Shown here in pieces: positions 5,267 through 7,023 of a DNA stretch of 64,000 nt. The notes under the pieces were generated by a model that was not told the origin of the DNA, did no database searches, and saw only the letters and a list, made by a program, of their open reading frames with translations. The translations under genes were made by a program, and so were the position numbers. Position 1 is the first letter of the stretch. The number at the start of each line of letters is the position of its first letter. The stretch is from Thermoplasmata archaeon (lineage in GTDB: Archaea > Thermoplasmatota > E2 > JACPAO01 > JAHFTW01): contig JAXDQS010000001.1 in NCBI GenBank assembly GCA_034667725.1, positions 64,001 to 128,000 on the forward strand. The letters run 5' to 3'.

Positions 5267-5317
5267 GCAGCCAACCGCCTTCATTCGAGCTACTGCCCGC
5301 TGAGGCCAGCCTGCCAG

Positions 5318-5377
5318 TCAGTGCGCCTTCGGCGCAACGACGGCCTGCGGCGCGCCGTGCTTCTTGCGCTTCGGGTG
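5318..5377 (-). pseudogene. Orphan atpB C-terminal fragment 2 (HPKRKKHGAPQAVVAPKAH*)
   Basis: Manual translation; aligns to the live atpB end [19 protein letters not shown]. Confidence 0.88.
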
Positions 5378-5463
5378 GCGCTGCTGCCGCTGAGGCGGGC
5401 AGCAGCTATCCTCGGCGCTTCGCGCGCCTCGGTACCCAAAGCACGAAGCCGTGGAGGCTCGGT

Positions 5464-5520
5464 CTAGTGCGCCTTCGGCGCACTGACCATCGGCGCTCCA
5501 GCCTTCTTGTGCTTCGGGTG
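5464..5520 (-). pseudogene. Orphan atpB C-terminal fragment 1 (HPKHKKAGAPMVSAPKAH*)
   Basis: Manual translation; same flanks as the live atpB end, TAG instead of TGA. Confidence 0.88.
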
Positions 5521-5601
5521 GCGCTGCTGCCCGCTGAGGCGGGCAGCAGCTAACCTCGGCGCTGCGCGCCCGAAGCCCCCAAGGACCGTTTTCAGCGCTG
5601 G

Positions 5602-7023
5602 TCAGTGGGCCTTCGGCGCCACCATCTGCTGCGCGCTGGCCGACTTCTTGTGCTTGGGGTGGAACTGCTCGATCGTCTTCTTGTCAATCCTGGTCAGGAT
5701 GGACTCGTCGACGGTCGCCAGGAGCTTCCAGCCCAAATCGAGGGTGTCCTCGATGCTGCGGTCGTCGTCGCGGCCTTGGCGGACGTACTGGTCCTCGAAC
5801 TTGTCCGCGAACTCCAAGACCTGCAGGTCGCGCTTGCTGAGGGCGTCCTTGCCGACGATGGCCACCAGGCCACGCAGGTCGCGGCCTTCGGCGTAGAGGG
5901 CGTAGCACTGGTCGCTGACCTTCTTGTGGTCGTCGCGGGTCTTGTGGCCGCCGATGCCGGCGTTCATCAGGCGCGACAGCGAGGGCAGCACGTTGATGGG
6001 CGGGTAGATGCCCTTGCGGTGCAGCTCGCGCGAGATGACGATCTGGCCCTCCGTGATGTAGCCGGATAGGTCCGGGATGGGGTGGGTGATGTCGTCGCCG
6101 GGCATCGTCAGGATGGGGAACTGGGTGACGGAGCCCTTCTTGCCCTTGATGTTGCCCGCGCGCTCGTAGAGCGACGCCAGGTCGGTGTACATGTAGCCGG
6201 GGTAGCCGCGGCGGCCTGGCACTTCCTCACGGGCGGCGCCGATCTGGCGCAGCGCCTCGCAGTAGTTGGTGACGTCCGTGAAGATGACCAGCACGTGCAT
6301 GCCGAGGTCGAAGGCGAGGTACTCGGCGGCCGTGAGGGCCAGGCGGGGCGTCAGCAGGCGCTCGACGGCGGGGTCGTCGGCCAGGTTCTGGAAGATGACC
6401 GCGCGCTTCAGGGCACCCGTGCGCTCGAACTCGCCCATGAACTTCTTGGCCTCCTCGTTGGTGATGCCCATCGCGGCGAACACCACGGCGAAGCTCTCGT
6501 CCGTGCCGCGCACCTTGGCTTGGCGCGCGATCTGCAGGGCGATGTCGTTGTGCGGCAGGCCCGAGCCGGAGAAGATGGGGAGCTTCTGGCCACGGACCAG
6601 CGAGTTGTTGCCGTCGATGGTCGAGATGCCGGTCTGGATGAAGTCGTGCGGGCTGGCGCGCGAGTACGGGTTGATGGCGGCGCCGATGATGTCGAGCGAC
6701 TTGTCCGGAATGATCTCCGGCCCGCCGTCGATGGGGGCGCCGGCGCCCGAGAACACGCGGCCCAGGATGTCCTTCGAGACGCCGAACTTGATGGTCTCGC
6801 CGAGGAACTTGACCGACGTCTTGTCCGTGTCGATGCCGGTGGTGCCCTCGAAGACCTGGACGACAACCTGCTTGCCGGAGGTGTCGAGCACTTGGCCGCG
6901 GCGGATGGAGCCGTTGGGCAGGCGCAGCTGGACGAGCTCGCCATAGCCGACCTCGTGGGTCTTCGTGACGAAGACGAGCGGGCCCTTGACCTGCTGGATC
7001 GTGCGGTATTCCTTCTGCACCAT
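5602..7023 (-). CDS. atpB: A/V-type ATP synthase subunit B
   Basis: [45 protein letters not shown]; ATG at 7023. Confidence 0.98.

Follow-up and report, generated by a model that had tools for sequence, protein, structure and literature searches.

Duplicated 3' ends of archaeal genes and tRNAs and a probable gene-less homing cassette with a fold-back arm

We found that dozens of genes and tRNAs in a family of soil archaea carry a second copy of their own 3' end behind a short folding linker. This layout is a real and general feature that is not restricted to atpB, the gene to whose 3' end a preliminary description had assigned a dedicated process. The duplicated ends are probably the mark of a selfish, gene-less homing cassette of about 70–170 nt, which consists of a substitute 3' end for a conserved gene or tRNA, an antisense arm, and a two-hairpin core. 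The arm folds back on its own tail and can probably be retargeted. Support for the anatomy is good; the mechanism is put forward as an unproven proposal. If this reading is correct, an element that encodes nothing has replaced the 3' ends of about 1% of the genes, and of many tRNAs, in this archaeal family.

The array at atpB

The stretch of DNA analysed (64,000 nt, the window) belongs to a metagenome-assembled genome (MAG) of 2.3 Mb with 71% GC that is 90% complete, and close AtpB relatives carry the Thermoplasmatota label. The features of the atpB locus, all on the minus strand, are as follows.

5602..7023, minus strand: atpB, A/V-type ATP synthase subunit B (473 aa), the target gene and the last operon gene here
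5602..5661, minus strand: live 3' end of atpB, the duplicated segment including the stop codon, read as the newest tail
5601-5521, minus strand: linker 1 (81 nt)
5569..5586, minus strand: antisense arm of unit 1, with 5586-5577 complementary to the start of the live end and 5576-5569 to the start of tail 1
5554..5570, minus strand: hairpin P2 of unit 1 with a GNA triloop, its outer arm with tandem GA partly lost
5521..5550, minus strand: hairpin P3 of unit 1 plus two unpaired junction nucleotides, the 12-bp stem lying at 5550-5523
5464..5520, minus strand: tail 1, read as a former atpB end, which terminates in a perfect 8-bp GNA hairpin and is a single folding unit with linker 2
5463-5378, minus strand: linker 2 (86 nt)
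5434..5463, minus strand: antisense arm of unit 2, with 5444-5434 set against the first 11 nt of tail 1 and 5463-5445 extending the pairing over most of tail 1
5378..5433, minus strand: intact core of unit 2, with P2 at 5432-5410 (tandem GA pairs, GNA loop), a 3-nt junction, P3 at 5406-5380, and two unpaired nucleotides
5318..5377, minus strand: tail 2, read as the oldest surviving atpB end
5289..5311, minus strand: decayed P3 of a third unit, whose partner tail and native terminator are gone

The succession of live end, linker 1, tail 1, linker 2, tail 2 and decayed hairpin agrees with the preliminary description, as do the peptides, the stop-to-stop spacings of 138 and 146, and the His codon that starts tail 1 and tail 2, each 2 nt past the hairpin. 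Two of its points stand in part. The 12-bp stem is perfect in unit 1 but lacks one base in unit 2, and the tails differ by synonymous changes, as claimed, but also by several amino-acid changes in the low-complexity middle. The exact 28-nt hairpin, proposed as a search query, occurs only once in the genome, at this locus; its structural family is widespread in the genome and was detected with covariance models.

The two units differ in preservation. In unit 1 the antisense arm shares positions with the 5' arm of hairpin P2, which is damaged, and tail 1 together with linker 2 forms a single long rod (z = -7.5). For linker 1 the better folding partner is tail 1 and not the live end, an exception to the upstream rule described below, and the order in unit 1 is blurred by later conversion or tandem duplication. 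In the closest AtpB relative (L274:1464-1700), a tail and an arm are present with the two core hairpins in reversed order, from which it follows that more than one core type has invaded atpB.

Mis-assembly had been named as a way in which such an array might arise. A Logan contig of sequencing run X1, possibly the source sample, covers 4400-5896 with one difference and no gap, and four independent atpB loci (G002, G006, L117 and L274) have the same layout with tails of their own. The spanning contig and these loci rule out an assembly artefact as the origin of the array. A joint of 5347-5498 in run X2, which has a 21-nt side of low likeness, and joints in other small-share runs were set aside as unreliable.

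The tails had also been read as an adaptive reservoir of swappable AtpB ends, comparable to the orphan modules of Rhs/CDI systems. The tails are in frame with a stop codon, and the direct repeats could permit deletion back to an old tail. However, tRNAs and unrelated enzymes show the same layout, AtpB has a hypervariable C-terminal extension that its relatives often almost lack, and no joined form occurs in the contigs of run X1, although contigs drop rare variants. We found no evidence for such a reservoir and regard it as very unlikely. Tails 1 and 2 have no exact match among the live atpB ends of about 50 AtpB relatives.

Spread across genes, tRNAs and genomes

A stop-anchored, base-aligned scan of approximately 2,100 called genes in this MAG, with shuffled gene/downstream pairs as the null, gave 27 genes at a score of at least 18 (25 once two paralogue pairs are removed) versus none in the shuffled pairs. 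The curated set holds 49 copies at 42 genes, 29 of which are in this MAG (29 of ~2,100). At least nine tRNA genes of this MAG also carry a spare 3' end beyond a hairpin linker, some in arrays of two or three. In a second genome 18 of 1,627 genes carry the layout versus two in the null, and of 18 orthologous targets three are common to both genomes. The duplications span 10–91 nt, and the linkers are mostly 40–170 nt. Duplications of 5' ends were not above the null genome-wide; two possible instances with hairpin linkers lie at G000:C2:83564 and C7:14591. A separate family of 75-bp tandem repeats, whose unit takes in the gene's last codons, is found behind several stop codons (G000:C7:17850-18110, C3:549950, C10:12744).

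Covariance models of the core alone, with flanks ignored, returned 20 new matches, most of them behind the 3' ends of genes or tRNAs. The atpB-type core is also present 3' of tRNA-Leu genes in this MAG, each with its own arm, and in relatives the same core is found 3' of acyl-CoA dehydrogenase and tRNA genes, again each with a matching arm. Among 151 genomes of the phylum, with 37 candidates scored per genome, the R3 model gave no credible match beyond the family, and among the genomes searched the core sequence is confined to it. Pattern matches in bacterial genomes and viral contigs were without P3, arm and tail and were rejected as chance.

The antisense arm, the core and the displaced ends

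The hairpin that the preliminary description took for the element is P3 only, the last arm of a larger fold-back structure whose antisense arm had been overlooked. Each atpB linker contains a reverse complement of the tail start followed by a conserved core of about 57 nt with two hairpins. The strand folds as a three-way junction formed by the pairing of the arm with the tail start, P2 (with tandem GA and a GNA loop), three free bases, P3, and two free bases. This geometry is fixed, with the arm flush with the junction, linkers of 3 and 2 nt, and conserved bases in the core. Covariation is seen at 14 of 17 core pairs in an alignment that was itself fitted to the model. GNA loop motifs are more frequent on the sense strand than on the other (100:43). 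A half core behind a proteasome beta-like gene (G000:C1:131818-131897) has a tail start and arm that resemble P3 of the atpB units, a likeness that hints that P3 arms may derive from older tail-arm stems.

The pairing of the arm with an upstream partner exceeds the null's 95th percentile in 38 of the 48 cores. The upstream fit is the better one in 24 cases and the downstream fit in three, with 11 ties, in a comparison where the upstream search had more freedom than the downstream one. A swap test that covered all linkers but those of the REP-like class gave the better fold to the upstream tail in 18 cases versus five (P = 0.004), a result that also holds with RNA energies (P = 0.018). Several core matches share only 2–4 nt with the downstream side, and there the arm still fits the upstream tail. 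Because the upstream tail is a better match for the arm than the displaced tail is, the mobile unit is the new tail together with its antisense arm and core.

A second, REP-like class accounts for about 15 of 40 linkers and has the same tail layout with no antisense arm, which means that the layout does not depend on it. REP-like GNA hairpins are also enriched between genes. Class-B linkers in G000 (for example C10:211444, C3:267878, C4:18705 and C3:223787) contain REP-like GNA hairpins common to unrelated genes and tRNA-Tyr, with synonymous tail copies and no antisense arm.

The fold might act as RNA, either as a structure of the 3' UTR or pre-tRNA trailer or as a circular RNA copied back by a distant reverse transcriptase, with the spare tail soaking up the arm in the transcript. 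The cassette is always sense-oriented behind a transcribed end, some loops are of the GNRA or CUUG type and G-U-type pairs are present, and the swap test, as noted, tolerates RNA energies. However, GNA triloops, which are stable in DNA rather than RNA, dominate, no match to a known structured RNA reaches the Rfam gathering score, a reverse transcriptase is found in only one of 32 genomes, and the synonymous bias of an untranslated copy is left unexplained. We consider an RNA role improbable.

Single-base differences between the live end and its copy comprise 111 synonymous and 25 non-synonymous changes (82% synonymous) versus 39% expected of a neutral copy; the P value is about 2e-24, and this and the other P values given here overstate significance because the elements are related to one another. 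The scan aligned bases, and thus the bias is not built into it, although the stop anchor is. Since the differences are mostly synonymous, both copies were once coding, and the view that the tails are once-functional alleles is upheld. Frame-breaking offsets occur in three of 49 copies. Live ends and copies are not separable by codon adaptation (P = 0.07 and 0.74), which is lower in the duplicated zones (0.50) than at control gene ends (0.58; P = 0.001). Low codon adaptation would fit codons chosen for folding, and the swap test suggests that codon choice in the replaced ends is shaped by the fold. The differences are not biased towards adenine, with A in the copy at only 21 of 164, and no reverse transcriptase was found in this MAG; a diversity-generating retroelement was rejected on these two grounds.

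The displaced ends also indicate a direction. Tail 1 of G002 is 89% identical to the live atpB end of another species (G009) but only 63% identical to tail 2 of G002. At empty sites a pyrimidine tract lies 3' of the atpB stop codon, as seen in 8 of 17 relatives, and in G002 it is found behind the last tail; because this native tract sits there, the distal tail is the original end. Over 42 cases the counts for this marker are low, three after the last copy and none after the live stop codon. Repeated insertion of a new 3' end plus repeat, as first proposed, is supported by the synonymous bias, by the arm that tracks the upstream tail, by the displaced tract, and by the foreign tail of G002. The arrays are probably ordered from newest to oldest away from the live end.

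The same observations bear on two further readings, neutral decay after insertion of a REP or MITE with a long target-site duplication, and mis-assembly. REP-like hairpins are indeed common between genes, and some copies are identical to the live end. However, the synonymous excess refutes neutral decay for the bulk of cases, and the foreign tail, the spanning contig and the independent loci count against either origin, which we find scarcely credible. REPs of the GTAG/CGTC type with their RAYT transposases resemble the cassette as short, gene-less, GC-rich palindromes right behind stop codons; in the part of that source available to us they are not described as bringing gene ends (PMC3733652). 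No terminal GTAG/CGTC tag is present in 27 aligned cores, and Pfam family PF01797 is found in none of 32 genomes, so a REP/REPIN was rejected. An IS1634-type element or MITE with a long target-site duplication was also set aside: the copies are not neutral, G006 has 18 cassettes and no match to the DDE family PF01609, and the match in G000 is isolated on a 3-kb contig. This DDE transposase (L383, G000:C23) stands alone there and is possibly a binning contaminant.

Movement and comparison with known systems

No enzyme gene lies within a cassette in the two near-complete genomes. Searches of this MAG, 90% complete, for the named families of reverse transcriptase, Y1 transposase, IS110 (PF02371), TnpB and LAGLIDADG found none. 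Y1 (PF01797) and DUF3800 occur in 0 of 32 genomes, TnpB (PF07282) in 0 of 32 above the cut-off, and LAGLIDADG_3 (PF14528) in 0 of five. One GIY-YIG match is in a 945-aa frame with no cassette link, and none of three HNH matches is within a cassette. IS110/IS1111 and OMEGA (TnpB) systems were rejected on the same searches. ComEC was found in none of five genomes and DprA in only one of them, which counts against the homing route favoured below. Three units bear cargo, which by reading of the sequence is a glyoxalase-like gene, a second guaA-type gene, and a secreted protein, none of them nuclease-like. At L203 (G000:C2:2370-3677), a GMP-synthase glutaminase-like gene has behind it an entire second, diverged copy, and after that an arm, a core, and a tail of the first copy.

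The recombinases found are no better placed. The single tyrosine integrase of this MAG is in an unrelated element and not beside any cassette. A 275-aa single-copy serine recombinase (L282:1492-2316) is kept in 46 of 61 relatives across the class and adjoins a lipoyl-transferase-like gene in several of them. It is present also in families where the core was not found, which argues against it as the mover, and is possibly a domesticated housekeeping resolvase. Of the HUH/TnpA-REP, recombinase and reverse transcriptase genes suggested as companions of the arrays, the tested families are absent or unlinked to cassettes.

The same cassette could nevertheless be moved by a dedicated trans-acting enzyme (HUH-like, a tyrosine or serine recombinase, or a nuclease) that would bind the folded core, excise tail, arm and core as a single-stranded circle, and join it at the junction, as with folded attC or CTX attP. 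The fixed geometry and conserved core bases, the matches with only 2–4 nt shared downstream, and the passenger genes of some cassettes are in keeping with this, and the conservation of the core sequence hints at a dedicated protein and counts against an account that uses host functions only. Set against it are the family counts above, the position of the sole integrase, the distribution of the serine recombinase, and target sites without a consensus. We hold this explanation to be rather unlikely. With dozens of unrelated targets and no consensus site, the earlier idea of a site-specific process does not stand in the sense of an integrase.

Our preferred reading, a gene-less homing cassette moved by homology and host repair, has in our judgment an even chance of being correct when taken whole. 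The route itself, gene-body homologous recombination followed by fold-back and host joining, falls slightly short of that. Ordinary homologous recombination within the conserved gene body would pair donor DNA from a related cell with that of the recipient. The donor tail, sequestered on the sense strand by its own antisense arm, would make pairing halt exactly at the tail start. The fold would place the 3' end of P3 at this same point, where host flap-trimming and ligation could join it to the recipient's old tail; the donor's spare tail, if similar enough, could serve as a second homology arm. Each arrival would thus supply a working new gene end and leave the old one behind the core, and the insert would persist as the gene remains whole. 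Retargeting may begin at a junction match of 2–4 nt, after which arm and tail would co-adapt. The single-stranded DNA intermediate is, like the joining step and the retargeting, presumed.

Contrary to what had been supposed, arrays of this form have a precedent. Yeast WHO elements at FBA1 consist of a replacement 3' end plus element and home repeatedly to build ordered tandem arrays, shifting the old end downstream, where it acts as a second homology arm (bioRxiv 10.1101/2020.01.20.913210). The cassette shares this unit, its array growth and its polarity, with the replacement end upstream and the displaced native end downstream. In contrast, WHO elements are kilobase-sized, encode a LAGLIDADG/zinc-finger endonuclease, have one main target and act in eukaryotic meiosis, whereas the cassette is protein-free, is built on a 57-nt core with an antisense arm, and has dozens of targets, tRNAs among them. 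A similar case is that of the fungal mitochondrial mobile ORFs with C-terminal duplication, known from Allomyces atp6 and from Glomus atp6, atp9, cox2 and nad3: the gene uses a foreign C-terminus in place of its displaced native one, and targets include ATP synthase genes (PMC3630166). They differ in having an endonuclease ORF between the two ends, and the part of that source available to us describes no fold-back arm (PMC3630166). Linkers of mostly 40–170 nt contain no endonuclease gene; because this defining gene is absent, the cassette is not a member of either group. Its arm, which matches the element's own tail, is also a poor fit to a cleavage guide.

Accretion of ICE, IME and CIME elements likewise gives gene-end direct repeats, arrays and enzyme-less remnants at the 3' ends of tRNA and protein genes, but depends on a cognate integrase and one specific attB and leaves decayed islands rather than a uniform covarying fold (PMC5704250). 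The duplicated ends might thus be eroded, CIME-type remnants of integrase islands that carried a replacement gene end, since such 3' ends are classic island targets, tandem accretion yields ordered arrays (PMC5704250), and a few units have cargo. However, one genome has at least 38 unrelated targets and one integrase, located in an unrelated element; uniform linkers of ~40–170 nt share one core across these targets; and the arm, unlike att arms, is tailored to each tail. An island origin was rejected on these grounds and is in our view highly improbable.

The cassette also invites comparison with single-stranded folds and with CRISPR. In integron attC, CTX phage attP and IS200/IS605 ends, a single-strand fold presents the junction, with fixed sequences, a known enzyme and 4-nt guides. 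As in these systems, a guide 5' of a hairpin pairs with sequence next to the joint; the cassette differs in that its arm is 10–30 nt long, is target-specific, and matches the element's own tail. Relative to the CRISPR arrays to which the layout had been likened, the repeats vary and the spacers are host gene ends. Our literature search, incomplete in its coverage, found no description of such a cassette.

If the homing reading holds, the cassette is the gene-less equivalent, in prokaryotes, of WHO-type homing, and it switches targets through changes in a short arm. Such retargeting would make it a candidate minimal programmable-insertion system that is testable directly with oligonucleotides. 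More tentatively, prokaryotes may harbour protein-free retargetable homing elements that use a single-strand fold, a built-in antisense arm and only host recombination and repair to give any conserved gene or tRNA a new 3' end, in which case the last codons of essential genes would be under selection to fold as DNA. The cassette is a new kind of element only as long as it is enzyme-less; with a nuclease or recombinase of its own, it would count as a variant of the homing or integrative elements.

In this MAG atpD is on a different contig from the atpB operon. The gene is separated from the ATP synthase operon family-wide (G000:C11:21333-21911) and lies after atpB in sister families, and atpD ends are likewise cassette targets in G006, G017, G022 and G024. 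In four relatives (L061, L062, L066 and L069), insertions of 1.5–9 kb that finish with a TATA-like stretch ahead of atpB separate the normally overlapping atpA and atpB. Elsewhere in the window, a gene of 3,357 codons (32956-43029) probably encodes a giant surface protein.
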